A stretch of 64,000 nucleotides of DNA from a bacterium (GCA_028719205.1 JAQUKH010000001.1:80603-144602); one strand, 5' to 3'; shown: positions 1,046 to 48,301, counted from the first letter of the stretch. The notes: generated by a model not told the origin, from the sequence alone. Numbers and translations are program-made.

Positions 1046-2500
1046 CTACTCAAATTTCCATACTTGATCCGGGTGTTTGACCGCTTGACAAATTCTACCA
1101 CCATCATCTTTATTGCCGTTATAAACATCCAGATATAGCCCACTGATTCTTGATTGGATATAATAATATCCCGGATATTTTTCAGATGGTTCTAATCGCC
1201 ATACTTGATCTGGGTGTTTGACGGCTTGACAAATTCTACCACCAACATCTTTATTGCCGTTATAAACATCCAGGTATAGCCCACTGATTCTTGATTGGAT
1301 ATAATAATATCCCGGATATTTTTCAGATGGTTCTAATCGCCATACTTGATCTGGGTGTTTGACGGCTTGACAAATTTTACCACCAACCTCTTTATTTGCC
1401 TGATATACATCCAGATACAAACCACTGTTTTGTGATTGGATGTAATAACCACGATTCCCGCTTTCATCATTCGCGTTTCCGTTAAATGGATAATAGGCTA
1501 CTAATGCACTGTTGATATTTTCCCCTTGCGTTTCTCCTTGTGTAGGTTTTATAATATCAATTATTTTGGGCGGGACATGAGGTTTAGCTTCTATAACATC
1601 AGGTTTATCCGCCCGGGGTTTGTTTCCCATAGCATAAACCGAAGGCTGCACAAATACAAACTCGCCTCCCTCGGATCCCGGCAAATTGCCGAATTCAGGG
1701 ATTTGATCTGCCAGTTCAGCTACCTTTGGCTGTATATAGGTGTTTATTTCCGAAGCTGTAATAATACCATCGCCGTTATAGTCAGCCATACCTGTGATTA
1801 ACGCATCCAGAAAAGTTCCGGTGAAAGCGGAATGATTTTTATAACCGCCATCGCTTACAGGCTCCTTGCCGCCGGCAGTCAGGGCTTGCCTTGCTTTGCG
1901 TTTGGTTATTTCCTGCAAATATCGCGGATGATCATCTTTAACCGCCGCCGCACGCGTTGTAAAAAACATACCTGAATAACAGGCGTCCAGCACCATATAG
2001 ATATGTTTAGCCTTAATATCCTTTAAAATATCTTTCAGCTCTGTCATTGAAATCGCTGAAGCTCTGTATTCTCCCTGACGATAGTCCACCGGTATGAGAT
2101 AACCATTATCTTTGCTGCTTTCTCCATGGCCCGCGAAATAAATTAACAATCTATCTCTATCTCCTATTTTATCAGGCAAATCATCTCCTATCTTCTTCAA
2201 AATATCATTTTTTGTAGCTTTATTATCATATAGGGTAAAAATGTGATCTTCCACAAATCCATATTTATCCTGAAGCATTTGTTTTACCGCCTCAGCATCG
2301 CTAACCGCGAATTTAAGCTTCCCAACATTTTGATAATTATCAATTCCTATCACAACAGCCCAACTTTGCCCAAACGGTTCAAGCACTTCTCCGTCTTTGG
2401 CGACAATTTTGATACTGCGTAAACCATCATTAGCAAAATCCATAGTTGTAGTCATTAGGAATGCCAGTATAACTAAAATGACGATCAGTTTGGTTCGCAT
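1046..2500 (-). CDS. secreted peptidase C14 (caspase/orthocaspase) with C-terminal ricin-B-type beta-trefoil lectin (three QxW repeats)
   Basis: Signal peptide; His/Cys dyad motifs YFAGHG and LDACYSG; C-terminal 3x47-aa repeats containing Q-V-W. Confidence 0.85.
   Translation of the reverse strand: MRTKLIVILVILAFLMTTTMDFANDGLRSIKIVAKDGEVLEPFGQSWAVVIGIDNYQNVGKLKFAVSDAEAVKQMLQDKYGFVEDHIFTLYDNKATKNDILKKIGDDLPDKIGDRDRLLIYFAGHGESSKDNGYLIPVDYRQGEYRASAISMTELKDILKDIKAKHIYMVLDACYSGMFFTTRAAAVKDDHPRYLQEITKRKARQALTAGGKEPVSDGGYKNHSAFTGTFLDALITGMADYNGDGIITASEINTYIQPKVAELADQIPEFGNLPGSEGGEFVFVQPSVYAMGNKPRADKPDVIEAKPHVPPKIIDIIKPTQGETQGENINSALVAYYPFNGNANDESGNRGYYIQSQNSGLYLDVYQANKEVGGKICQAVKHPDQVWRLEPSEKYPGYYYIQSRISGLYLDVYNGNKDVGGRICQAVKHPDQVWRLEPSEKYPGYYYIQSRISGLYLDVYNGNKDDGGRICQAVKHPDQVWKFE
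1058..1480. repeat. three tandem 141-nt repeats encoding the three beta-trefoil subdomains (1058-1198, 1199-1339, 1340-1480). Copies 1 and 2 are nearly identical; copy 3 is diverged.
   Basis: Direct comparison of the nucleotide blocks starting ccatacttgatc... Confidence 0.85.
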
Positions 2501-2606
2501 AATTTATATTTCTCCCCCATTTTTATCAATCCGAACTCCCCTAATCCCCTATTTAAAAAAAGAGGGGAAAATAACAGTAAAATTATATTTATCTTTTCCC
2601 TCTTAC

Positions 2607-2632
2607 TCCTCCTCTTTTTTTAAAGAGGAGGA
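2607..2632. other. perfect 11-bp inverted repeat tcctcctcttt-tttt-aaagaggagga (GA/CT-rich hairpin) in the intergenic spacer. A second hairpin tcccct-N12-agggga lies about 60 nt upstream.
   Basis: Seen directly; no flanking U-run, so not a canonical intrinsic terminator. Confidence 0.4.
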
Positions 2633-2660
2633 TGGGAGGAGTTCTCTTAATGTTATTCTT

Positions 2661-2709
2661 TCAGCTTTTGAATGAATTTAGCTGATAGCTGAGTGCTGAA
2701 TTCTGACAA
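2661..2709. repeat. family-1 TCAGC-heptad element, right-arm-only (half) copy
   Basis: tcagcttttgaatgaatttagctgatagctgagtgctgaattctgacaa matches the right arms at 7001-7031 and 8307-8337. Confidence 0.6.
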
Positions 2710-2710
2710 C

Positions 2711-4477
2711 TTATTTATTATCCTTTCTCTCTTCTTTTTTGTTACCCTTATCTCCCTTAGTTTCCGTGCTGTCCCACACCTCCTCCGTCCCCGCGGATGG
2801 AATTGGTTTTGACATCGATTGGCCCTCCTCTTCAGTCAGCCCCCTTGAGCCTGTAAATCTATTTATGTCTTTTCCATAGATCTTAAATTCATAAATTGTT
2901 TCTGACCATATAGTTTTATCTAATTTTTCCCGTACTACGCCGATATTTTTTATACCTCTTGTATTTATCTCGTAGAACGGTTTTTTAAAATCCATTCCGA
3001 ATATATTTTCAATTGGGTCAGGTTTTATTGAAGCAATCGCTTTTACCCTTTCTATTCCGGCAGGCCCTTCTATTTTCATCTTAAATCCGTAATTATCACC
3101 CGGGATTCTGTAAGTCTGGCCTGCCCTGATAAAATTGTCCTGTGAAAATTGATTAGGGAAAAGAACATATGTTTCACCGCTTGTCGCTATATCAACTAAA
3201 GTCAGATAACAGTCACGGCTTGCTTTAAAATAGAAGTTTACATATTCATCTATTTTGTAACTTTCTTTATCAGTAGCGATATTAATATCAAACTCTTTTT
3301 TCTCTTGTTTTATTCCAATTATATTTTCTATACCTTTATTCTCTAAAAATACAAAATATTGCGCTTTCTTTACAACTTTCTCATCACTTAGCAACCCAAA
3401 TTCAACAGGGAAACTGCCTTCTTTATCAACAGGAATCCCCTGGCCGTCAAATTTTACTTTACCTGACATGTCAGTAAACTCATCTCTAACCCTTTTATCT
3501 AAATTGGGAAGAAACATAAAAACAGGCGAGTTTTTTATTGGAATATTTTTATCACCGGCCATATAACTAAATTCAATTTCAAACGGCTCCTTAATTTTTC
3601 CCCCGACTAAGATCTTCTGGTTATCGCCGGAAATTTTTTTCATTATGATCCCATTAAGTATTTTATCTTTTAAATGTTCAATGTCCTGCATCGATGGAAG
3701 ATTATTAGAATTATTATTTCCGGAAATTTGGGCTGATAAATATACTTTGTCAAATACGGTTTTCCTTTCTTCCGATAAATCCCAAAGTATTTTTAATGCT
3801 AAAACAACCTCCCCGTTTTTTTCATGCTCCAATGCTGTATTATAACCTTTTGTAATGCCTTCGATTTTTTCCTGCAGCAATTTGATCTCCATCTGTTCTT
3901 TTTTATTTTCTTCTTTTTCTTTATTTTCTGCGGCTTTATCTCTTCTTTTTTCCGCATATTCTCTTATACTTCTAATTTCTTCCTGAGGCACCGAAATTAA
4001 AAGCGCGGACACCCAATAAATTTTAGAGTTTTTATTTTCATAATATTTATATTTGCAATCATACCATTCTGATGGTTTTGTCCCGCGAATGAACGCTTCA
4101 GCAGCAGCACTGCTCGCATTTTTTCCAATTGACGCTATAGTTTCTTCATTATCTTTTCTGACTACTTTATTAATATATTCTTCTATAACTTCTATATTGA
4201 CTCCGCAATACTTAATAAATTCAATATCCGCGCCCCGCTTTGCTTCATCACGGGCAAATTTTCGCTCTTCTTTTTTTGATGACATACTGACAAAATACGC
4301 GTATTTTTCATCATGTTCAGGAGGTTTTATAAACCAGGCGGGCTGGATCGGGGAGGAAGATTCAAGTAATACCTCATTAACTTCCACAGTCTTTTGAGAT
4401 TCATCTCTAACTTGCATTCCTGTGCAGCTGCAAAACATAGAAATTACAATTATAATTATAAAATATTTTTTACCCAC
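2711..4477 (-). CDS. lipoprotein with N-terminal LPP20/FlgP-like domain and C-terminal DUF4384-like domain; K/E-rich tail
   Basis: Lipobox-like FCSC; PAWFIKPP...YAYFVS pattern of the LPP20 family; the C-terminal block YVNFYFKASRDCYLTLVDIATSGETYVLFPNQ...YRIPGDNYGFKMKIEGPAGIERVKAIAS resembles the caspase-associated DUF4384. Confidence 0.55.
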   Translation of the reverse strand: MGKKYFIIIIVISMFCSCTGMQVRDESQKTVEVNEVLLESSSPIQPAWFIKPPEHDEKYAYFVSMSSKKEERKFARDEAKRGADIEFIKYCGVNIEVIEEYINKVVRKDNEETIASIGKNASSAAAEAFIRGTKPSEWYDCKYKYYENKNSKIYWVSALLISVPQEEIRSIREYAEKRRDKAAENKEKEENKKEQMEIKLLQEKIEGITKGYNTALEHEKNGEVVLALKILWDLSEERKTVFDKVYLSAQISGNNNSNNLPSMQDIEHLKDKILNGIIMKKISGDNQKILVGGKIKEPFEIEFSYMAGDKNIPIKNSPVFMFLPNLDKRVRDEFTDMSGKVKFDGQGIPVDKEGSFPVEFGLLSDEKVVKKAQYFVFLENKGIENIIGIKQEKKEFDINIATDKESYKIDEYVNFYFKASRDCYLTLVDIATSGETYVLFPNQFSQDNFIRAGQTYRIPGDNYGFKMKIEGPAGIERVKAIASIKPDPIENIFGMDFKKPFYEINTRGIKNIGVVREKLDKTIWSETIYEFKIYGKDINRFTGSRGLTEEEGQSMSKPIPSAGTEEVWDSTETKGDKGNKKEERKDNK

Positions 4478-4497
4478 TATCCCCCCTATTTAAAAAA

Positions 4498-4921
4498 TAG
4501 CATTCAGCAATCAGCTGTCAGCATTCAGCTTTTTAATGAAAGACGTAATCATGCGCTTAATTTCTATTACCTTTTCAGTAAGACACTGGAAATCAGAATG
4601 GCTCAGCAACTCAAGATCATGAGTAAGCAGAAGATGATATTCTAACTCACATGCAGAACCCATCGCAATCTGAAAGAAACGCGATAACTCAGCTTCTCCC
4701 TTTCTTCCGCAGCCTTCTGCAATGTTAGCTGGAATAGAAGCACACGAACGCCGAATTTGGCTTGTCAGACCAAACAACTCATTTTTTGGAAAACTTGAAG
4801 TAGCTTTGTATACAGCCAAAGTTAATTCATGAGACTTCTCCCAAACTTTCAGTTCTCTAAAATTCTTCAATTGTATCGCTCCTTATTTTGCTGACAGCTG
4901 ATCGCTGAGTGCTGACAGCTC
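4498..4921. mobile_element. family-1 palindromic element carrying a gene. Left arm 4498-4529 and right arm 4890-4920 bracket the four-helix-bundle protein gene.
   Basis: The arms gcattcagcaatcagctgtcagcattcagc and gctgacagctgatcgctgagtgctgacagct are inverted TCAGC-heptad arrays as in the empty copies. The gene's last 7 codons lie inside the left arm. Confidence 0.4.
4511..4870 (-). CDS. four-helix-bundle protein (23S rRNA intervening-sequence protein family, PF05635/TIGR02436)
   Basis: ...LAVYKATSSFPKNELFGLTSQIRRSCASIPANIAEGCGRKGEAELSRFFQIAMGSACELEYHLLL... TTG start preceded by AAGGAG. Confidence 0.85.
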   Translation of the reverse strand: MKNFRELKVWEKSHELTLAVYKATSSFPKNELFGLTSQIRRSCASIPANIAEGCGRKGEAELSRFFQIAMGSACELEYHLLLTHDLELLSHSDFQCLTEKVIEIKRMITSFIKKLNADS

Positions 4922-6127
4922 TTATATGGCTTTATACGCTTCCTTCCTCTTCAGTATCCTTTGTAAATAATCTATTGTTTCCTGTTTTGGTAATTTTTTT
5001 ATTAACGTTTCATAGACAACTTTTGAAGTCATACTATTTATAATGGCATCTGCTTTTTTGATATCTTTCACGCCTGCAAATGTTTGCGCGAGATTTCCTA
5101 TCCCCGTATTATAAGCGGCAATAACGCAGTAAAGCCTGCTTTCTACATCTTTTATATTTTTGCAGTAACCATAAAATAATAATCCAAGATAAGCAGTTCC
5201 AATATTTATGTTGTTTTCATCATTATATAAATAAGAAGGGCTCAATAAATATGACTTCCCATATAAAATTTTCGTAACATCTTTACCGGCTGTTCCAGGG
5301 ACCACCTGCATAAGCCCATAGGCGGGAATCGGAGACTTTGCCATCGGATTAAAAGCGCTTTCTGTATGTATTACTGCCAATGCCAGAGACAGATCTAATT
5401 TATTTTTATCCGTGTATTTGCTGACTGACGCTTTATATTGTTTTGCTCTTTTAAGTAAACTATCAGATGGCAGGTCTATTTTTATGCTAATTACAATCGT
5501 TTTCTCAACTTTTGACGGCGCTTCCTGAATTTTAGCTTTTGCTACTATCTTTTTTACTTCTTTAGAAACTTCTTCTTTTTTAGGCGTGGGAGTATTAAAA
5601 AATACAGGCGCCAGGATCGGATCGCTTTTCACCTCATCTTTTTTTATATTCTTTACTTCTTTAATTACCTTTTTTTCTATGTTCTGTGAAAGCTTATCTT
5701 TTTCAAAGGCCGTTTTTTTGTCTTCAACCATTAAATCTTCCAGTGCCTTTTTAATTTTATTCTCTTTTTCCTCTTTTTTTTCATTCTGGCCTACGATTAT
5801 ATCTATTTTTATATTATTATTCTCAAAATCCACAATTTTTTTTGTTTGATAATCAGGAGAGTACTCAACCCATTTTTTATTATCAGAAATTTCAGGTTTA
5901 TCCCAGTTTGCTAATATCTCTTTTTTGTAATTCTCATATTCTTCTTCTACTATATTTTTATATTGTTCAAATTCTTTTTCTATTTCCGCTTGATATTCCT
6001 CAAATTCCTGCTGTTCCTGAGCAACTCCATTTTCCTGCTGTTTAACAAAGTCTTCAAAAGATTCAGCGGATACAAATGAAAAGTTAAAAAATATCATTAC
6101 ACCGGCCAAAACAATTACTTTTTTCAT
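4922..6127 (-). CDS. MltC-like membrane-bound lytic murein transglycosylase (SLT domain) with E/K-rich coiled N-terminal region
   Basis: HTESAFNPMAKSPIPAYGLMQVVPGTAG catalytic motif. Start chosen at ATG 6127 (MKKVIVLAGVMIFFNFSFVSA signal peptide, GGAAGGAA RBS). The longer ORF to 6160 would start with TTG inside the repeat. Confidence 0.75.
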   Translation of the reverse strand: MKKVIVLAGVMIFFNFSFVSAESFEDFVKQQENGVAQEQQEFEEYQAEIEKEFEQYKNIVEEEYENYKKEILANWDKPEISDNKKWVEYSPDYQTKKIVDFENNNIKIDIIVGQNEKKEEKENKIKKALEDLMVEDKKTAFEKDKLSQNIEKKVIKEVKNIKKDEVKSDPILAPVFFNTPTPKKEEVSKEVKKIVAKAKIQEAPSKVEKTIVISIKIDLPSDSLLKRAKQYKASVSKYTDKNKLDLSLALAVIHTESAFNPMAKSPIPAYGLMQVVPGTAGKDVTKILYGKSYLLSPSYLYNDENNINIGTAYLGLLFYGYCKNIKDVESRLYCVIAAYNTGIGNLAQTFAGVKDIKKADAIINSMTSKVVYETLIKKLPKQETIDYLQRILKRKEAYKAI

Positions 6128-6148
6128 TTTTTGTTTTTCCTTCCAATT

Positions 6149-6227
6149 AGCTATCAGCAATCAGCGCTCAGATATCAGCTAATTCAAATAAAAGCTGAAT
6201 GCTGACAGCTGATAGCTGAACGCTTAG
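6149..6227. repeat. family-1 TCAGC-heptad palindromic element (complete, empty)
   Basis: agctatcagcaatcagcgctcagatatcagct - aattcaaataaa - agctgaatgctgacagctgatagctgaacgct. Confidence 0.7.
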
Positions 6228-6898
6228 TATTTCTTAAACTTCTTGATAATCCAAATAACAACATATATTGCCACACAAAACCCTACAAAAAACGCAAGTA
6301 TAAGTTCATTGGTTCCTAAACTAAAACCGCTTTTTTCAGATATGGAAGATTCCGATAACGGTTCCACTTTTGCTTCAGATTTAGCTTCTTCCTTGACTTC
6401 TTCTTTTACCGCTTCTTTCACTTCTTCTTTTTGTATTTCTTTTGGTTTTTCTACTGCTATTTTTTCAACCTGTTTAATTTCAACTGTTTCAGCTTTTATA
6501 TCCGCTAAAATCAAATTTTCTTTTTTATTTTCAACCGCAGCCCCTTTACGAAGCTCTTCTAATTTATCTATTTCCTTATCTAGCTCATCCTGCCCATTTT
6601 TTGCTTTATTCTCCTGCCATAATGCTTCTTCGTTTATTTTTTTTTCTTTTTCGGGAGCAGCTTTTCCTTCGGTTTTAGCCTCATTTGAAATACTAATTGA
6701 TTTTTTGTCTTCTGAAATTTCTTTTTTAAACTTATTAAAATCCTCTAAATTTTCTTTCTTGTGCTCCTGAAAATCCTCTTTCATCTTTTGACTGGTTTCT
6801 CCCTCAAGCTCATTTTCAACGTCATCATATGTTTCAGCAAATAAAAACGTACTATTTAATAACATTATTATTCCGATAAAAATAAGTAATTTTTTCAT
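6224..6898 (-). CDS. secreted E/K-rich low-complexity protein with C-terminal transmembrane anchor
   Basis: Signal peptide MKKLLIFIGIIMLLNSTFLFA (ATG 6898, AAGGAG RBS); C-terminal LILAFFVGFCVAIYVVIWII; contains the ALWQENKAKNGQDELDKE motif shared with 7562..8164. Confidence 0.5.
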   Translation of the reverse strand: MKKLLIFIGIIMLLNSTFLFAETYDDVENELEGETSQKMKEDFQEHKKENLEDFNKFKKEISEDKKSISISNEAKTEGKAAPEKEKKINEEALWQENKAKNGQDELDKEIDKLEELRKGAAVENKKENLILADIKAETVEIKQVEKIAVEKPKEIQKEEVKEAVKEEVKEEAKSEAKVEPLSESSISEKSGFSLGTNELILAFFVGFCVAIYVVIWIIKKFKKY

Positions 6899-6924
6899 TC
6901 TATTATTTCTCCTTTGAAGTTTAA

Positions 6925-7031
6925 GCATTCAGCTCTCAGCTATCAGCACTCAGCTTTTTAATAGCATTCATCCATCTGCATTCAGTTTTTGAATGGATTT
7001 AGCTGATAGCTAGTAGCTGACCGCTGAACGC
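6925..7031. repeat. family-1 TCAGC-heptad palindromic element (complete, empty)
   Basis: gcattcagctctcagctatcagcactcagc ... agctgatagctagtagctgaccgctgaacgc. Confidence 0.7.
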
Positions 7032-7037
7032 TTCTTT

Positions 7038-7496
7038 TCATTGCAACACCATCCATACATGAATTTCCCCTGATTTTTCATCTTTCCAGATCTCTTCAAT
7101 ATTCGCTTTTACACTTTTACTATCAGACGTCTGAACGCTATAAGTACCCATATATGTCTTTGCGTCATTCTGTGTACCGGTTGTCGCGGTTACAAGATAA
7201 CTATTAACCTTTACCCCTAACTGCCTTGCTATATCATCCAAGGCCCTTTCTATAGCCAATTTTCTCTGTTCATTTTCACTTTTTATATGTATTCCGGATG
7301 TCCCAACACCGCCAATATTGCCTTTCATTCCCGGATTCCAATACCATTCCGGTTTACCATTTACTATTTTTGTCCCTTTTGATGTAACGTTCGTAATTAT
7401 TGATCCGCTATTATCCGCTTTTTTTACGCAGGATGACGCGGTAAACGCCAATATAACTACAGGTATTAGTAATAACCGGCTAAAAATATTTTTCAA
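7038..7496 (-). CDS. LPP20/FlgP-like lipoprotein
   Basis: Lipobox TASSC; PEWYWNP...GGVG...A..A..LA pattern. TTG start. Confidence 0.55.
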   Translation of the reverse strand: MKNIFSRLLLIPVVILAFTASSCVKKADNSGSIITNVTSKGTKIVNGKPEWYWNPGMKGNIGGVGTSGIHIKSENEQRKLAIERALDDIARQLGVKVNSYLVTATTGTQNDAKTYMGTYSVQTSDSKSVKANIEEIWKDEKSGEIHVWMVLQ

Positions 7497-7561
7497 ATTA
7501 ATACCCCCATTTTATTGGAGGAAAAGCATAAGATCTGCTTTCCCTCCAACTCTAATATTTA

Positions 7562-8164
7562 CTATTTTTTAGATTCAACTAATTTATTTACTTCTTTGTC
7601 CAGTTCATCCTGCCCATTTTTCGCTTTAAACTCCTGCCATAAAGCCTGTTCGTTCTTAAAACTGGTTTCAACCTGGTCTTTTATGGATTTCTTAGCTAAT
7701 TCATTATCAATAACAATCAAAACATATAAATTATCTTTTGGGGATGCCCAACTATCCCTAAGTGTTGTACCATTTAAAGTTTGGCTTGCAACTTGTTTTG
7801 ATACATCCGCTGATACCCTGTCAACCATTTCGCCATTACCAACCCCTGTAACATTCATAAAAGATTTAACCATATTTTTTACTTTTAACTCCATCATTCT
7901 GGCAAGTTCATTTCTTCCGTTGGCCAAAGCCTCTGTTCTTGCAAAGGACATACCGGCTTTACCTACTTTAGCAATACCAACTGCCGCGATCCCGCCTTCT
8001 ACCTGAGAGGTGGTTACCCATTTTGGAGCATCTTTAAATTCACTTTGTACAGTTGTATCCTGTTGAGTGTCTGTTTGCTTTGTTACGGCCTTAGTTGTTC
8101 CACAACCGGCAGAAAACACCACTGCAATAGCCAAAATACTTAACGAAATCATTTTCTTTTTCAT
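7562..8164 (-). CDS. LPP20/FlgP-like lipoprotein
   Basis: Lipobox FSAGC; APKWV...GGIAAVGIAKVG...ARTEALANGRNELA; strong AAGGAGGAT RBS. Confidence 0.65.
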   Translation of the reverse strand: MKKKMISLSILAIAVVFSAGCGTTKAVTKQTDTQQDTTVQSEFKDAPKWVTTSQVEGGIAAVGIAKVGKAGMSFARTEALANGRNELARMMELKVKNMVKSFMNVTGVGNGEMVDRVSADVSKQVASQTLNGTTLRDSWASPKDNLYVLIVIDNELAKKSIKDQVETSFKNEQALWQEFKAKNGQDELDKEVNKLVESKK

Positions 8165-8230
8165 TGTGTATCCTCCTTTTTATTTACATTGTGAATTTTT
8201 TTTTATTTAACTACAATGCTAGCTTATTAA

Positions 8231-8337
8231 GCAATCAGCAGTCAGCTTTCAGCTTTTTAATAGCTTTCTGCGTTCAGTTATCATTAGTCAGCTTTTGAAT
8301 AAAATTAGCTGATAGCTGAATGCTGAAATCTGATTGC
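8231..8337. repeat. family-1 TCAGC-heptad palindromic element (complete, empty), located in the 5' leader of 7562..8164
   Basis: gcaatcagcagtcagctttcagc ... agctgatagctgaatgctgaaatctgattgc. Confidence 0.7.
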
Positions 8338-8414
8338 TAAAGATTTAATCACCTCCCTGGCTTTAAGATGCTATTTTTTAGTAATAAACTTTTTTATATC
8401 TAACTCTAATATAA

Positions 8415-8431
8415 TGCAAGAACCATGCCAA
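8415..8431 (-). promoter_or_regulatory. sigma-54 (-24/-12) promoter. Minus-strand sense TTGGCATGGTTCTTGCA.
   Basis: TGGCAT-N5-TTGCA with correct spacing; 16/18 identical to the promoter at 16190-16206. Confidence 0.6.
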
Positions 8432-8576
8432 AAGTCGTTAAACAGTAAAAATAAATTCATTTTTATTAAAAAAACCCGATTTTTTCAGTCTTTTCCCCGT
8501 TTTTTTTAATCCAAATCCAAAATTACTAATATTAGCATATCAAAAACAGCCTGTTCCTATATCAAATAACGTATGG

Positions 8577-8591
8577 ATGCATGGAATTCCA
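8577..8591. promoter_or_regulatory. putative EBP enhancer (UAS) palindrome ATGCATGGAATTCCA, about 155 bp upstream of the sigma-54 promoter
   Basis: Same 15-mer as in the 16342-16359 palindrome, with the same spacing to the promoter. Confidence 0.45.
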
Positions 8592-8626
8592 CACAAGATA
8601 TGTTAAATGTTTTAGAATCTATCACC

Positions 8627-8670
8627 GTCAGCATTCAACTTTTGCATAAAATTAGCTGATAGCTGAAAGC
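8627..8670. repeat. family-1 element, half copy
   Basis: gtcagcattcaacttttgcataaaattagctgatagctgaaagc. Confidence 0.55.
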
Positions 8671-8673
8671 TCC

Positions 8674-10176
8674 TTATACAATATGCCCCCCTTTGTCAGG
8701 TTTATTAATATACTTTCGTCCTTTTGCCGTAATTTTGTACTTTTGGAGACGGCTGTTGGGCTTTTCCAGAATGGTTCTTTCAATAAGCCCTTCTGACAAA
8801 AGATCTTGAACCAACCGTTTAAGTGCCCCTGTAACTTGCTTCCTTCCAACTTGCACAGATATCTCAGACATAGAAAGCGGTTTATCCTTTAATGCTATTA
8901 TAACTGACTCGGCCCCTGACTCGGCCCCTGACTCGGCCCCTACAACCGGTTTTAATTTCACTAAAATTTTACGCCATACTGTTAAAATAAAGAACCCATT
9001 TTCTAAATGGAATTCCGGTGGTTTCATGCCTGCTTTTCGGCAATTATCAAACATATCAACAGTTCCGGTTCCAGCCTTTTCGATATATTTTGTCAGAAAA
9101 AGCGGTTCGGCAATCAGCGGATTTCCAGGGTGAGACGAATGAGGCATCGATAAACTCTCAATTGTCAGTGACGGCGGCAAAGTTCCAGGATTCCATACCT
9201 CAAGGCGATCTGCAAAAAGCATAATTTCAACGCTGGCATTGCTTATATAATCACGATGAGCTACTGCATTTACAATTCCCTCCGCGACCACTTCTTGCGG
9301 AATATCATATTCAACAGGAGCTTGCGGCCCTTGCGCCCGTGTTCCAACAAAACGGTTAAGTTTTGACATCACGAAATCAACCGACTGATCGACCATATCA
9401 AAAACCGTTCCCTTGTAAATTTGATATGATGGAATCGGCTTGAGTTTCTGTGTACCGTGAAAATGCATACATTTCACTTCGGAAGTAATCAGAAACCGCT
9501 GTGGTTTGACTCCAAATAATAAAATTGCCGCATGATTCGGTTTCCCTTTATCAAGCAGATCCAGATGGGTCAAAACATCAACAACAGGTGTTGTTTCTGC
9601 TAAAGCGTAATCACGGGCGTTGTGCGCGCGTGAAAGAAACCAGCGAATCTTATCGTCCGAAATATCGGCGACCTCCGCATTAAGACACATCGTCGCGTCA
9701 AATGGCCCGGTGTGGATCCGCCCGGAACCAAGAAGATAATGTACCAGGCTTGCGTAGACAGCTGAATGCAATTCTGGCAATGTATTAAAACGCCGTCGAA
9801 TCAACTGTGCTCCTGCTAAATTGATCAAAGAAATCATCTTTGGATGCCGGGATGCATCGCTATCGCCTTTGACAAAGATATAGCGAGGTTTACTACCCTG
9901 CGATGCCAAAAGAAATTCTTTATGCGTCGCGGACATTCCGTCGGAATCTTCAATGCCATACTTATTACCAAACAGGCCAATATAAATATCGCTCCGTTTA
10001 ACTTCTTCCAAGTACACCTCATCAGCACGGCGATCAGTAGCAGGAATATCCTCAAACAGAAACACATTAAAAAACCTGTTTAATAACGCGTCTCCCTGTA
10101 TATAATCTTTCAGAGCACGGCGTTCTTCGCTAAATTCTTTTTGAACACTGCTGATAAATATTTTATATTTTGTCAT
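8674..10176 (-). CDS. DUF4062-like N-terminal domain + AlbA_2 (Schlafen-like) + HATPase_c_4 + C-terminal winged HTH (RecG-like transcriptional regulator architecture, COG2865)
   Basis: KIFISSVQKEFSEERRALKDYI...SDIYIGLFGNKYG (DUF4062 pattern); ...NAVAHRDY...GTGTVDM... (HATPase_c_4); C-terminal wHTH. Confidence 0.55.
   Translation of the reverse strand: MTKYKIFISSVQKEFSEERRALKDYIQGDALLNRFFNVFLFEDIPATDRRADEVYLEEVKRSDIYIGLFGNKYGIEDSDGMSATHKEFLLASQGSKPRYIFVKGDSDASRHPKMISLINLAGAQLIRRRFNTLPELHSAVYASLVHYLLGSGRIHTGPFDATMCLNAEVADISDDKIRWFLSRAHNARDYALAETTPVVDVLTHLDLLDKGKPNHAAILLFGVKPQRFLITSEVKCMHFHGTQKLKPIPSYQIYKGTVFDMVDQSVDFVMSKLNRFVGTRAQGPQAPVEYDIPQEVVAEGIVNAVAHRDYISNASVEIMLFADRLEVWNPGTLPPSLTIESLSMPHSSHPGNPLIAEPLFLTKYIEKAGTGTVDMFDNCRKAGMKPPEFHLENGFFILTVWRKILVKLKPVVGAESGAESGAESVIIALKDKPLSMSEISVQVGRKQVTGALKRLVQDLLSEGLIERTILEKPNSRLQKYKITAKGRKYINKPDKGGHIV
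8906..8941. repeat. 3x12-nt perfect tandem repeat (gactcggcccct) encoding an (AESG)3 linker
   Basis: Seen directly. Confidence 0.9.
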
Positions 10177-10195
10177 TTTGTTTTGCTAATTTCTT

Positions 10196-12466
10196 TTATT
10201 TATATTCACTGCCACGAACAGGCCAAACAGAATAAAAATAGTTATCATTAAACAAACGAAGCTCTTGACCGTTAGAAAAATCAACAATTCGGCCATCAAT
10301 ATTTATCCAATAGCCCTGACTTTCAGGCACTAAATTAACAAAAGGATGTTGCTCTTGTTTATTATAAACAGTTTTCATTCTTATCAACTCTTTATATGTT
10401 GGCAATCTCCATCCAAAATATTTTTCATAATTTAAATTATTACATGCTAATTCAGCATTTTCCCAAATCACTTTGTTTTTTAAATAATTTGCGTCCTTTA
10501 ACCACAATAGTTTTGTAACATTATCATAAATAACACCATTCCCTAAATCTATGAATTTTGAAGGAAATAAAGCATATTTATTAATTAGTTTGGACCCAGT
10601 TAAATCCATAAATCTTGAAGAAAATTCATATTTTTTATTTAACGCATCATCAATAACATATGCTTCATTAATACTAAAATCTTTTGTCGTTGGAAAATTC
10701 ACTTTGATTTCAGCCCTTAGCAAATTATTTTCAAAATGCTGTTTCAACACTTTTGCCTCTTCTCTTGGAATTAGTATATTTTGTTTACATGTTACTTGAA
10801 TTCCTTTGATTGGTTGTTTTATTCTTATGGTAACGGGGTAAAAATTAAACTCGGAATTGTACTGTCGAAGTTCTAATATTAAATCATTGTATGTTAAAAC
10901 AAATTCATTTTCCGAAAGCTGTTTTAGCCTTTCAATAAATGGCGTGATTTGTTTATAATATTCAGATTCAATTTTACTCGATAATGCCTCAAATTCAGGC
11001 GTTTGCTCTTTATCTAAATTTTCTTTTTCCTTTAATATTTCAATTGACAATCTGTTCTTAAATTCAATTTCTGACTCAAACTCATCTTTATTAGAGTTTA
11101 ATATTTTCCCAAATTTCTCATTAATTCTTATACATATCTGGTTTATTCCATTAGTCAATTCTTTTCTATAATTTTTCTGAATGTCTTTTAATTGTGCGTC
11201 TATTTCCTCCATCTCGTTTATTGTAGCTTCAGGAGAAATTGATCTTAATGTTGCACCTTCCAGCGATTTCCTTTTACCTTCAACTTCCTGTTTAAGCATT
11301 GCTAATCTGGTTTCTTCTTCCTTCTTTTTTTGGATCAATTCATTTTCTTTTTTTAATCGTTCCTTTTCTTCGTCTTCCCTTTTTTTACGGTTTTCTTCCA
11401 ATGCATCTTGTTTTAATTGTTCCGCCCTTAATTTTGCTTCAATTTTTATTTTTTCGATCTCTGCCTGATATTTTGCACTTTCATCATTTGCCTTTAAAGC
11501 AGATTCTTCCAATAATTTTAACCGATCAAGTTCTTTTTGCAGGTTTACAACTTCCGCTTGATTATCTTCCAGTTTGCGTTCAATTGAAGGGATAAAAACA
11601 TAATCTCCTAATCCATATAACTCTCCATATTTTGGTGTTTGTATATGGTTTCTCGCGTTTGCGTCTGAGAATACTTTTTCTTTAAGCGCAGTGCTTATTT
11701 CAGTGGCTGTTATAAAATCATCTGTATTTTCCAGAAGTTCAATAAACCTGCCGGTAAAAACCGAATGGCCTTTAGGCCCGCCGTCTAATACCTGCTGGTC
11801 TTTATCCCCCGCGGTTAACACTTGTCTGACCCGCTCTTTAGAAATTTCTTTCAAATAGTTAAAATCCCTTGCTGTTTCTCTATTTGCCCCTCTTTTTGTT
11901 ACAAGAATTCCGCCATAGCACGCATCAACAATATAGAAAATATGTTTTGCCGGTATTCGTTTTGAAATATCATCTCTAATCATTGTCATAGAAAAATTTT
12001 TATATAATTCTTCTTTTTTGAATGTTCCGTCAAATGGTATAAGATAACCCAAATCCCCTTCCGCTGTTTTTTCCGTATATCCATGCCCTGCCCAGAAAAC
12101 AAAAATCGCGTCTTCTTCTGTAACCTGGCTAAGATTACCTAAAAGAATTTTAGTAATATTTTCTTTTGTAGCATCTTTATTGTATAAGGTAATGATCTTA
12201 TCAAATTTAAAATTCTTCCTGATAGCGTCTTCAACCCCTTTAGCGTCCTTTACCGCATAAGCCAATTGCATGTCATATGGCAAATTTTCATATTGGTCAA
12301 TTCCAATAATAACCGCGTAAGATTTGTTATATAACTTAAGTTCTTTTTTCTCTCCCGATGTTTTATCAACGGCAATGATTTTTATACCGCGGGTATCATT
12401 AATTGCGTATATTCCGCTTGATATAAAACAAGCAATAATTATTAAAAATAATAATTTTAATTTCAT
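10196..12466 (-). CDS. secreted peptidase C14 caspase-domain protein + long coiled coil + C-terminal DUF1566 (Lcl C-terminal-like) domain
   Basis: Signal peptide; FWAGHGY and VDACYGG dyad motifs; E/K/R-rich coiled coil; C-terminal WRLPTYKEL...WPVRG, characteristic of DUF1566. Confidence 0.8.
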   Translation of the reverse strand: MKLKLLFLIIIACFISSGIYAINDTRGIKIIAVDKTSGEKKELKLYNKSYAVIIGIDQYENLPYDMQLAYAVKDAKGVEDAIRKNFKFDKIITLYNKDATKENITKILLGNLSQVTEEDAIFVFWAGHGYTEKTAEGDLGYLIPFDGTFKKEELYKNFSMTMIRDDISKRIPAKHIFYIVDACYGGILVTKRGANRETARDFNYLKEISKERVRQVLTAGDKDQQVLDGGPKGHSVFTGRFIELLENTDDFITATEISTALKEKVFSDANARNHIQTPKYGELYGLGDYVFIPSIERKLEDNQAEVVNLQKELDRLKLLEESALKANDESAKYQAEIEKIKIEAKLRAEQLKQDALEENRKKREDEEKERLKKENELIQKKKEEETRLAMLKQEVEGKRKSLEGATLRSISPEATINEMEEIDAQLKDIQKNYRKELTNGINQICIRINEKFGKILNSNKDEFESEIEFKNRLSIEILKEKENLDKEQTPEFEALSSKIESEYYKQITPFIERLKQLSENEFVLTYNDLILELRQYNSEFNFYPVTIRIKQPIKGIQVTCKQNILIPREEAKVLKQHFENNLLRAEIKVNFPTTKDFSINEAYVIDDALNKKYEFSSRFMDLTGSKLINKYALFPSKFIDLGNGVIYDNVTKLLWLKDANYLKNKVIWENAELACNNLNYEKYFGWRLPTYKELIRMKTVYNKQEQHPFVNLVPESQGYWINIDGRIVDFSNGQELRLFNDNYFYSVWPVRGSEYK

Positions 12467-25092: not shown

Positions 25093-25110
25093 CTATCTAT
25101 TCCCTTCCTT

Positions 25111-25144
25111 CCTTGCCCCATGCTCCATGCCCTATGCTCTTTGC
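25111..25144. repeat. family-2 heptad repeat
   Basis: ccttgccccatgctccatgccctatgctctttgc. Confidence 0.6.
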
Positions 25145-25148
25145 TTGT

Positions 25149-48218: not shown

Positions 48219-48258
48219 AACCTAATCAAAAGCTAATAAATGAAATATTTATATGTAT

Positions 48259-48301
48259 TTTGCCCTATGCGCCATGCTCCATGCACTATGCTTTACTCTT
48301 T
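48259..48301. repeat. family-2 heptad repeat overlapping the msbA stop codon
   Basis: ttgccctatgcgccatgctccatgcactatgctttactctttg. Confidence 0.6.

Follow-up and report, generated by a model that had tools for sequence, protein, structure and literature searches.

We analysed a stretch of 64,000 nt of bacterial DNA (GCA_028719205.1 JAQUKH010000001.1:80603-144602), hereafter called the window, and within it the segment 4498-4921, where an earlier note had described a gene of the four-helix-bundle (4HB) family PF05635 that takes the place of the loop in a palindromic repeat. Profile searches and the inverted-repeat match confirmed this arrangement. ORF calling on the window gave an intact open reading frame (ORF) at 4511..4870 on the minus strand, which encodes a protein of 119 aa and starts with TTG. 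A Shine-Dalgarno (SD) sequence, AAGGAG (4879..4884, minus strand), was read 8 nt ahead of the TTG; it lies in the loop, next to the inner end of the 5′ arm, and a comparable SD is present at the homologous cassettes of loci L002, L004 and L035. The cassette of 423 nt takes up the entire operon spacer, from the stop codon of the upstream gene to the ribosome-binding site of the downstream gene, and has the same orientation as both genes. The upstream host gene (4922..6160, minus strand) encodes an SLT-domain lytic transglycosylase and its stop codon TAA (4922-4924) abuts the 5′ arm, whereas the downstream one (2711..4477, minus strand) encodes a DUF4384 lipoprotein and starts 20 nt beyond the 3′ arm.

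Each arm is built from four tandem heptamers, TCAGCNN in the left and NNGCTGA in the right arm. The 5′ arm (4889..4921, minus strand) follows directly after the SLT stop codon, and the same array was found upstream of homologues in other phyla. The 3′ arm (4498..4529, minus strand) comprises GCTGANN heptamers that contain the codons for LNADS and the TGA stop, followed by 13 nt more. Thus, the arm supplies the final five codons of the 4HB gene plus the stop, and not the last seven codons as had been claimed in the earlier note; FIKK is encoded by the adjoining AT-rich segment. The two arms form an inverted repeat of 25 nt (4499-4523 and 4889-4913) with 92% complementarity, and in a second register (4513-4529 and 4904-4920) they are 94% complementary. 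When the window was searched with a 20-mer of the arm allowing at most 3 mismatches, 9 matches were obtained compared to 0 in 100 shuffles. Tandem Repeats Finder reported a period of 7 at 4499-4529, 6191-6224, 6929-6955 and 8306-8338. When the sense strand was folded, the arms paired with each other in both the minimum free energy and the centroid structure, enclosing the whole ORF (z = −2.35). A reading as intrinsic terminator was dropped, as a run of T follows the 4HB copy alone. Moreover, an E-value scan of 2000-9000 against Rfam gave no family and no rRNA, only chance microRNA-like matches on hairpins.

The 119-aa protein matched the profiles of PF05635 (E 2e-38, 131.3 bits with a cut-off of 33.8) and TIGR02436 (E 4e-39, 133.3 bits with a cut-off of 24) over its full length. 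Its AlphaFold2 model consists of four helices (mean pLDDT 89.7), and a Foldseek search with this model returned 2GSC (TM 0.90) and 2RLD (TM 0.80) as top matches, both of which have five chains in the deposited structure. Next came Avd (4DWL) and the reverse-transcriptase complex of diversity-generating retroelements (DGR). Avd, a pentamer that binds reverse transcriptase and RNA, has the same fold (TM ~0.8) and is the sole characterised relative. However, the identity is ~11%, and the scores for the bAvd and DGR-Avd profiles were under their cut-offs (NF033474, 26.6 bits compared to a cut-off of 80). Among the called neighbours in the contexts examined no reverse transcriptase was found, nor was a pair of template and variable repeats seen beside the gene, although no search aimed at such repeats was made. 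Because of the score under the cut-off and the lack of a nearby reverse transcriptase, we do not regard the protein as a DGR Avd. The Pfam/NCBIfam scan of the protein gave 4HB families alone, with no match to a transposase or nuclease, and PADLOC gave zero matches for it. Structures have been solved for the very large family PF05635, which was first discovered within rRNA intervening sequences (IVSs); to our knowledge it has no assigned function outside the Avd of DGRs.

We scanned one genome per species and confirmed 588 relatives of the 4HB protein, of which the best 80 were used for locus comparisons. These 80 loci, each from a different genome, cover more than 15 phyla and include Cyanobacteriota, Chloroflexota, Acidobacteriota, Actinomycetota, Nitrospirota, Nitrospinota, Methylomirabilota, Planctomycetota, Gemmatimonadota, Bacteroidota, Desulfobacterota, Betaproteobacteria, Abditibacteriota and one Bathyarchaeia bin. 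The nearest homologues share 70-78% identity, nearly all of them have a length of 119 aa, and they stem from widely differing phyla; both arms were verified in the DNA of a cyanobacterium-like contig and of Moorena producens. Counting arms as present when at least two in-phase units of one dialect occurred on both sides, both arms were found at 71 of 87 4HB gene copies, compared to 1 of 323 other ORFs (at least 100 aa) from the same loci. Among the 71 copies, 56 use TCAGC, 6 TTAGC, 5 TCGGC, 3 TCAGT and 1 TCAGG, and the variants change complementarily on both sides (TTAGC/GCTAA, TCGGC/GCCGA, TCAGT/ACTGA and TCAGG/CCTGA). In line with this, arm complementarity was 15.4 within a locus and 11.9 between loci (p = 5e-8). 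The junction of the ORF with the 3′ arm is fixed and in frame across phyla, and the C-terminus [IVL][QKNH][KR]L.A[DE].* is common to 43 of 82 homologous genes. At 65 of 77 loci the upstream neighbour lies on the same strand as the 4HB gene. In a variant build (L009, L012, L035, L041, L046, L051 and L212), the gene has a short but complete palindrome on its upstream side and a second GCTGA array downstream. All these data show that the gene and its two arms are one conserved unit in many phyla.

The earlier note had named other 4HB genes lacking these arms as an observation that would point to coincidence, and this check did not refute the association. A chance meeting of the gene with two arrays where repeats are dense might be suspected from the six elements within 6 kb of the window, and from unrelated small genes that lie between opposed arrays in array-rich viral contigs. 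Given the proportion of armed homologues compared to the control ORFs, the fixed junction, the co-varying arms and a separate dialect in a second 4HB subfamily (see below), coincidence is scarcely credible.

As a consequence of this organisation, the C-termini of homologues translate the heptamer array, and overextended N-termini translate the upstream array (for instance, ..QQSAIS.. in protein P0034 and SNQHSAVS in P0105). Gene callers run ORFs into the arrays (P0010, P0034, P0040 and P0105), which yields spurious N-terminal peptides. For annotation this means that many entries named four helix bundle protein bear N- or C-terminal extensions that are mere translated arrays. The mechanical ORF list also extended two ORFs of the window, 4922..6160 and 6224..6928, into arrays; their true starts are likely internal ATGs ahead of the signal peptides. 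The Bathyarchaeia copy (L010) lies on a 2-kb contig of a metagenome-assembled genome (MAG) and consists of a 4HB cassette with TCAGC arms that is at most 76% identical to the cyanobacterium-like copy of L002; as the contig was binned as archaeal, it reflects either inter-domain transfer or a binning error.

A second PF05635 subfamily, 41% identical to the protein of the window (E 1.7e-37), was found between nadA and nadB of L232. Relatives of it were found in four other operons, located between genes for a hydrolase and an AMP-ligase, two ABC proteins, DUF58 and BatA, and an ABC protein and a peptidase S8. In 5 of 5 operons, (R)GTAGAC arrays are present upstream and GTCTAC(Y) arrays downstream of the gene. 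Some hosts of the GTAGAC type are closely related to hosts of the TCAGC type, and both subfamilies occur in closely related Anaerolineae. Therefore, the heptamer tracks the gene subfamily and not the host. Each 4HB subfamily has its own heptamer, with co-varying arms, and this specificity, observed in the sequences, hints that the arrays on which the protein may act are its own.

Related strains with and without a 4HB gene at one site, a comparison proposed in the earlier note, were found in the nadA-nadB spacer of Anaerolineae. We used this site instead of the window locus because the DUF4384 protein next to the cassette has a single and distant orthologue (37% identity). From 80 metagenomic loci related to the nadA of L035, the spacer states were read where NadA was at least 85% identical, and the spacer was measured from the nadA stop codon to the nadB ribosome-binding site. 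In L035 and L224-L226 the spacer is 434-463 nt long and contains a TCAGC palindrome, an SD, the 4HB gene and a GCTGA array. L223, L228 and L229 harbour an empty palindrome of TAGACNG units (82-88 nt), whereas in L232 (470 nt) the second 4HB subfamily occupies the loop of a homologous TAGAC palindrome. L227, L231 and L234 have empty palindromes made of GATGCAN units (69-93 nt), L230 has octamer arrays (482 nt) and L236 a 9-mer palindrome (99 nt). These states are interspersed on a neighbour-joining tree of the flanks (~10% DNA divergence), and therefore repeated gain, loss or replacement must have occurred at one site. In L223-L236 the spacer (~3328-3810 in each locus) is hypervariable, yet it always holds a palindrome of short tandem units, be it TCAGC, TAGAC, GATGCA, the octamer TAGTCAGN or a 9-mer, and both arms switch together at each unit change.

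The earlier note had worded its idea as a gene riding in, or homing into, a pre-existing empty element. Under homing, empty palindromes would come first and 4HB genes would insert specifically in their loops, as might be read from L228 and L229 compared to L232, where, at the same nadA-nadB site, the loop of the homologous palindrome (29-nt identical right arm) is occupied by a 4HB gene. This difference is compatible with either direction. Moreover, the arms travel with the subfamily, each with its own heptamer, the ORF runs in frame into the 3′ arm at a junction that does not vary across phyla, and the cassette encodes neither an endonuclease nor an integrase. The empty copies in the window also contain 3′ codons of a 4HB gene (described below), which is not expected of an unoccupied target. 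We consider homing into hairpin loops improbable. The interpretation in the earlier note is supported in part, since the nesting is real and specific, but the data do not favour the arrival of the gene in an element that already existed.

Five further elements with the same heptamer were found in the window. All lie in intergenic gaps of the minus-strand cluster to which the cassette belongs, and each starts 0-6 nt past the upstream stop codon. Together with the cassette, the window has six copies, all within 2.6-8.7 kb of the 64 kb (a cluster of at most 6 kb), and no element with this heptamer was found in the other ~55 kb. The truncated element E1 (2661..2710, minus strand) lies directly after the DUF4384 stop codon and consists of a 5′ arm and FIQKLKE*, without a 3′ arm. 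E3 (6149..6225, minus strand) is a short-loop palindrome (14-nt loop, hairpin z = −4.5) that starts at the TAA stop of gene 6224..6928; its outer ends, AGCGTTCAGC...GCTGAACGCT, are also found at L085:16846-16920. E4 (6924..7033, minus strand) has no ORF and comprises a 5′ arm, SIQKLNADG*, AIKKLSADS* and a 3′ arm (hairpin z = −7.2). E5 (8227..8340, minus strand), also without ORF, is built like E4 with the remnants FIQKLTNDN* and AIKKLKADC* (hairpin z = −3.2). In the degenerate E6 (8618..8672, minus strand), as read from the sequence, a 5′ arm past the stop codon of gene 8674..10176 is followed by FYAKVEC*. The hairpin folds of the ORF-less elements are strong overall, with z between −3.2 and −7.2.

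The consensus C-terminus of the 4HB subfamily of the window is FIQKL.A[DE].*, and a motif designed for this C-terminus was matched 5 times in the 64 kb, in all cases on the minus strand inside elements, compared to 0.43 matches expected. Since 3′ codons of 4HB genes are present as remnants inside the empty copies, these seem to derive from a gene-bearing unit by loss of the ORF. Judged from the sequence, it is more likely that the empty copies are such ORF-less derivatives, in the orientation of the gene, than virgin targets. Behind intact 4HB genes, extra 3′ remnants are present as well, a single one each in L021 and L063 and five in tandem in L005. In L005, a cyanobacterial MAG, the last ~17 4HB codons plus the arm are repeated five times in tandem with a period of ~72-76 nt directly downstream of the gene (2108-2422).

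Remnants that keep 3′ ends and lack the 5′ parts, as well as the five tandem 3′ remnants of L005, might be expected from RNA-mediated copying, in which the Avd-like protein would work with a reverse transcriptase encoded elsewhere, and priming at the 3′ arm and 5′ truncation would create the derivatives. Here it is also relevant that Avd and the DGR reverse-transcriptase complex are the only characterised structural relatives. However, the missing reverse transcriptase among called neighbours in any examined context and the Avd profile scores under the cut-offs speak against this, and slippage between the arm and an internal heptamer-like string (the RMLT codons) could yield remnants too. We therefore hold RNA-mediated copying to be very improbable.

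The short ORF-less copies that retain both ends of a longer gene-bearing unit resemble miniature inverted-repeat transposable elements (MITEs), and the earlier note had proposed a cargo-carrying MITE. In the strict sense this does not apply, because a target-site duplication and a transposase are both lacking. In addition, the copies seen in the window lie within 6 kb, two exact proteins that were looked up showed a single context each, and the internal remnants derive from the 3′ end only. A reading as integron attC sites was rejected as well: the elements have no RYYYAAC/GTTRRRY ends, no integrase was seen and the gene cluster is also conserved without palindromes in L085.

The closest known counterparts of the cassette are the ORF-bearing IVSs in 23S rRNA of Coxiella (S23p) and Leptospira. 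In Coxiella, the IVS is 428 nt long and has a terminal stem of 28 bp with the S23p ORF in the loop, and this stem is cut by RNase III (PMC4990558). The cassette has the same protein family in its loop, a stem of ~25-30 bp and a similar length (423 compared to 428 nt). ORF-bearing IVSs are described by an S23p/4HB ORF in a stem-loop, terminal repeats of ~28 bp and a length of ~430-760 nt, and the cassette, with 423 nt and arms of 25-32 nt, corresponds to this description. Moreover, both show a sporadic, horizontal-looking distribution and have no target-site duplication or recognisable mobility enzyme (PMC4990558). Unlike the IVSs, the cassette is located between protein-coding genes (SLT and DUF4384) and not in helix 25 or 45 of 23S rRNA, and no 23S similarity was found among ~100 4HB loci. 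Furthermore, its arms are tandem heptamer arrays, its ORF is intact with a good SD, and ORF-less derivatives are nearby.

We therefore read segment 4498-4921, with moderate confidence, as a promoter-less and hairpin-bounded 4HB cassette of the ORF-bearing 23S rRNA IVS type that resides in the spacer of an operon. The cassette probably has no promoter of its own and would be transcribed by read-through, and in the transcript the arms could pair as a stem of ~25-30 bp. By analogy with the homologous 23S rRNA IVSs, this stem may be cut by RNase III, which would release the 4HB message while the neighbouring cistrons stay usable; we propose that the host therefore bears little cost from the insertion. 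The arrays, which could serve as portable homology or recognition sites, would be the route by which cassettes are gained, lost and exchanged. Recombination between arrays might produce the array-gene-array builds and the tandem 3′ remnants of L005, L021 and L063, and the Avd-like, probably pentameric, protein would act on its own arrays. The identity of 4HB proteins, 64.9% within and 63.5% between phyla in a set chosen by similarity to the query, lacks a phylum signal, which fits horizontal spread. We also found the cassette on six IMG/VR contigs, and two of these copies are pseudogenes that have kept their arms.

Several observations weigh against the IVS-type cassette and its mobility. Mismatches in the arms are not biased towards G.U on the sense strand (G.U 46 compared to A.C 58) and thus fail to demonstrate that an RNA stem is under selection; the arms would fit a DNA hairpin, or inverted sites for the binding of a protein, equally well. 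Target-site duplications, which the earlier note had suggested to look for at the junctions, were absent at all six copies of the window when their flanks were read. A helical bundle of 119 aa is not known to act as a recombinase. Two exact proteins, present on 7-8 contigs each, occur in one genomic context apiece, and in Nitrospira, Anaerolineae and Pyrinomonadaceae the 4HB gene stays at one site within the group, so that movement must be rare. In L085, a distant relative with a partly syntenic cluster, the palindromes are not located between the cluster genes, which fits a gain in the window and is a single comparison. Finally, TCAGCNN arrays are common without the gene: neither 4HB genes (tblastn and hidden Markov model) nor coding remnants were found in 120 array loci of IMG/VR (1.06 Mb). 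These arrays are therefore a separate class that is mostly not linked in cis to the gene.

IMG/VR contigs frequently carry TCAGCNN arrays of at least 5 units, in many cases arranged as short-loop palindromes that occupy almost all gaps. For instance, the high-GC virus-like contigs L173, L098, L110 and L111 have TCAGCNN/GCTGANN palindromes with short loops in nearly every intergenic gap. L173 carries 27 arrays in 14 kb, and no 4HB gene was present in the stretches of these four contigs that were fetched.

This abundance of arrays, which are much more numerous than 4HB genes and occupy almost all intergenic gaps in some contigs, would be understandable if the palindromes were host elements between cistrons and the 4HB protein a domesticated factor, similar to the transposases (RAYTs) associated with repetitive extragenic palindromic (REP) sequences and their REPIN hairpins. 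The protein would bind or maintain the palindromes, which would act as RNA processing or stability signals or as binding sites of a regulator, and its gene would be nested in one of them for autoregulation and not for mobility. The likeness to REP/REPIN-RAYT systems lies in a gene between inverted short palindromic repeats, intergenic copies without ORF and a gene that is usually positionally stable; they differ in that the RAYT is a homologue of HUH/Y1 transposases and not a small helical bundle, and in that its repeat is one imperfect palindrome and not tandem heptamers. In accordance with domestication, the best 80 loci come from 80 genomes with one site within families, the protein is very strongly conserved, and each subfamily has its own dialect. 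An unidentified regulator had also been proposed for such arrays before (PMC2700814, PMC4679880, bioRxiv 10.1101/2022.06.06.494920). On the other hand, a domesticated factor does not explain gain, loss and swapping at one site among close relatives, pseudogene copies that retain their arms, or the missing phylum signal in protein identity, and the remnant-bearing ORF-less copies cluster beside the gene instead of being dispersed. We regard domestication as a possible but rather unlikely explanation.

Independently of its origin, the cassette also belongs among the tandem-heptamer repeats, which have at least 3 units of 7 nt, are intergenic and lie beside a start or stop codon, as is the case here. 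Published examples are TAACTGA arrays of Beggiatoaceae, Cyanobacteria and Bacteroidetes, MTYCTGA pairs of Geobacter metallireducens and the heptamers of Nostoc, all described without a protein partner (PMC4679880, PMC2700814, bioRxiv 10.1101/2022.06.06.494920). They share with our arrays 7-nt units with a core of the ..CTGA type, the location in gaps beside start or stop codons and a patchy spread across phyla. In contrast to the inverted pairs around a subfamily-specific gene described here, they are mostly direct and 4HB proteins are not mentioned. Among the full texts covered by our literature search, which did not include all journals, no paper linked 4HB/S23p genes with heptamer arrays.

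We tentatively propose, and consider doubtful at present, that PF05635 4HB proteins are the missing partners of bacterial tandem-heptamer palindromes, with each subfamily recognising its own dialect and helping to spread or maintain it. This would be a widespread gene-plus-repeat class, so far unrecognised, that follows a RAYT/REPIN-like logic with an Avd-like, non-HUH protein, possibly via RNA, and ORF-bearing 23S rRNA IVSs would be a special case of its insertions. Tandem heptamer repeats have repeatedly been noted in cyanobacteria, Beggiatoaceae, Geobacter and others without a known partner or origin, and the origin of ORF-bearing rRNA IVSs has been unexplained since 1993. The conserved and subfamily-specific link between gene and repeat joins these two puzzles with a third one, the function of PF05635.

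Further observations were made around the cassette. Direct, not inverted, arrays of a different heptamer, CCATGCN, are located at 25110-25145 and 48255-48292 in gaps between minus-strand genes, which suggests that heptamer arrays are general in the genome of the window. Beside E1, between the caspase-ricin and DUF4384 genes, there is a long and almost perfect hairpin that has no relation to the heptamers (2527-2651, core CTCCTCCTCTTT...AAAGAGGAGGAG) and gave chance microRNA-like matches in Rfam. In L002, a DUF4384 gene is found 1.2 kb away from the 4HB gene. The gene cluster around the cassette (1046-12466) encodes two caspase-domain proteins, one of them with ricin lectin domains, the DUF4384 protein, the SLT transglycosylase, an LPP20 lipoprotein and a protein with DUF4062, HATPase_c_4 and Fic-like_C domains. 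Inside the caspase-ricin ORF, a tandem repeat of 141 nt (1058-1448, 2.8 copies, 92% matches) probably encodes the repeated ricin-type lectin domains.
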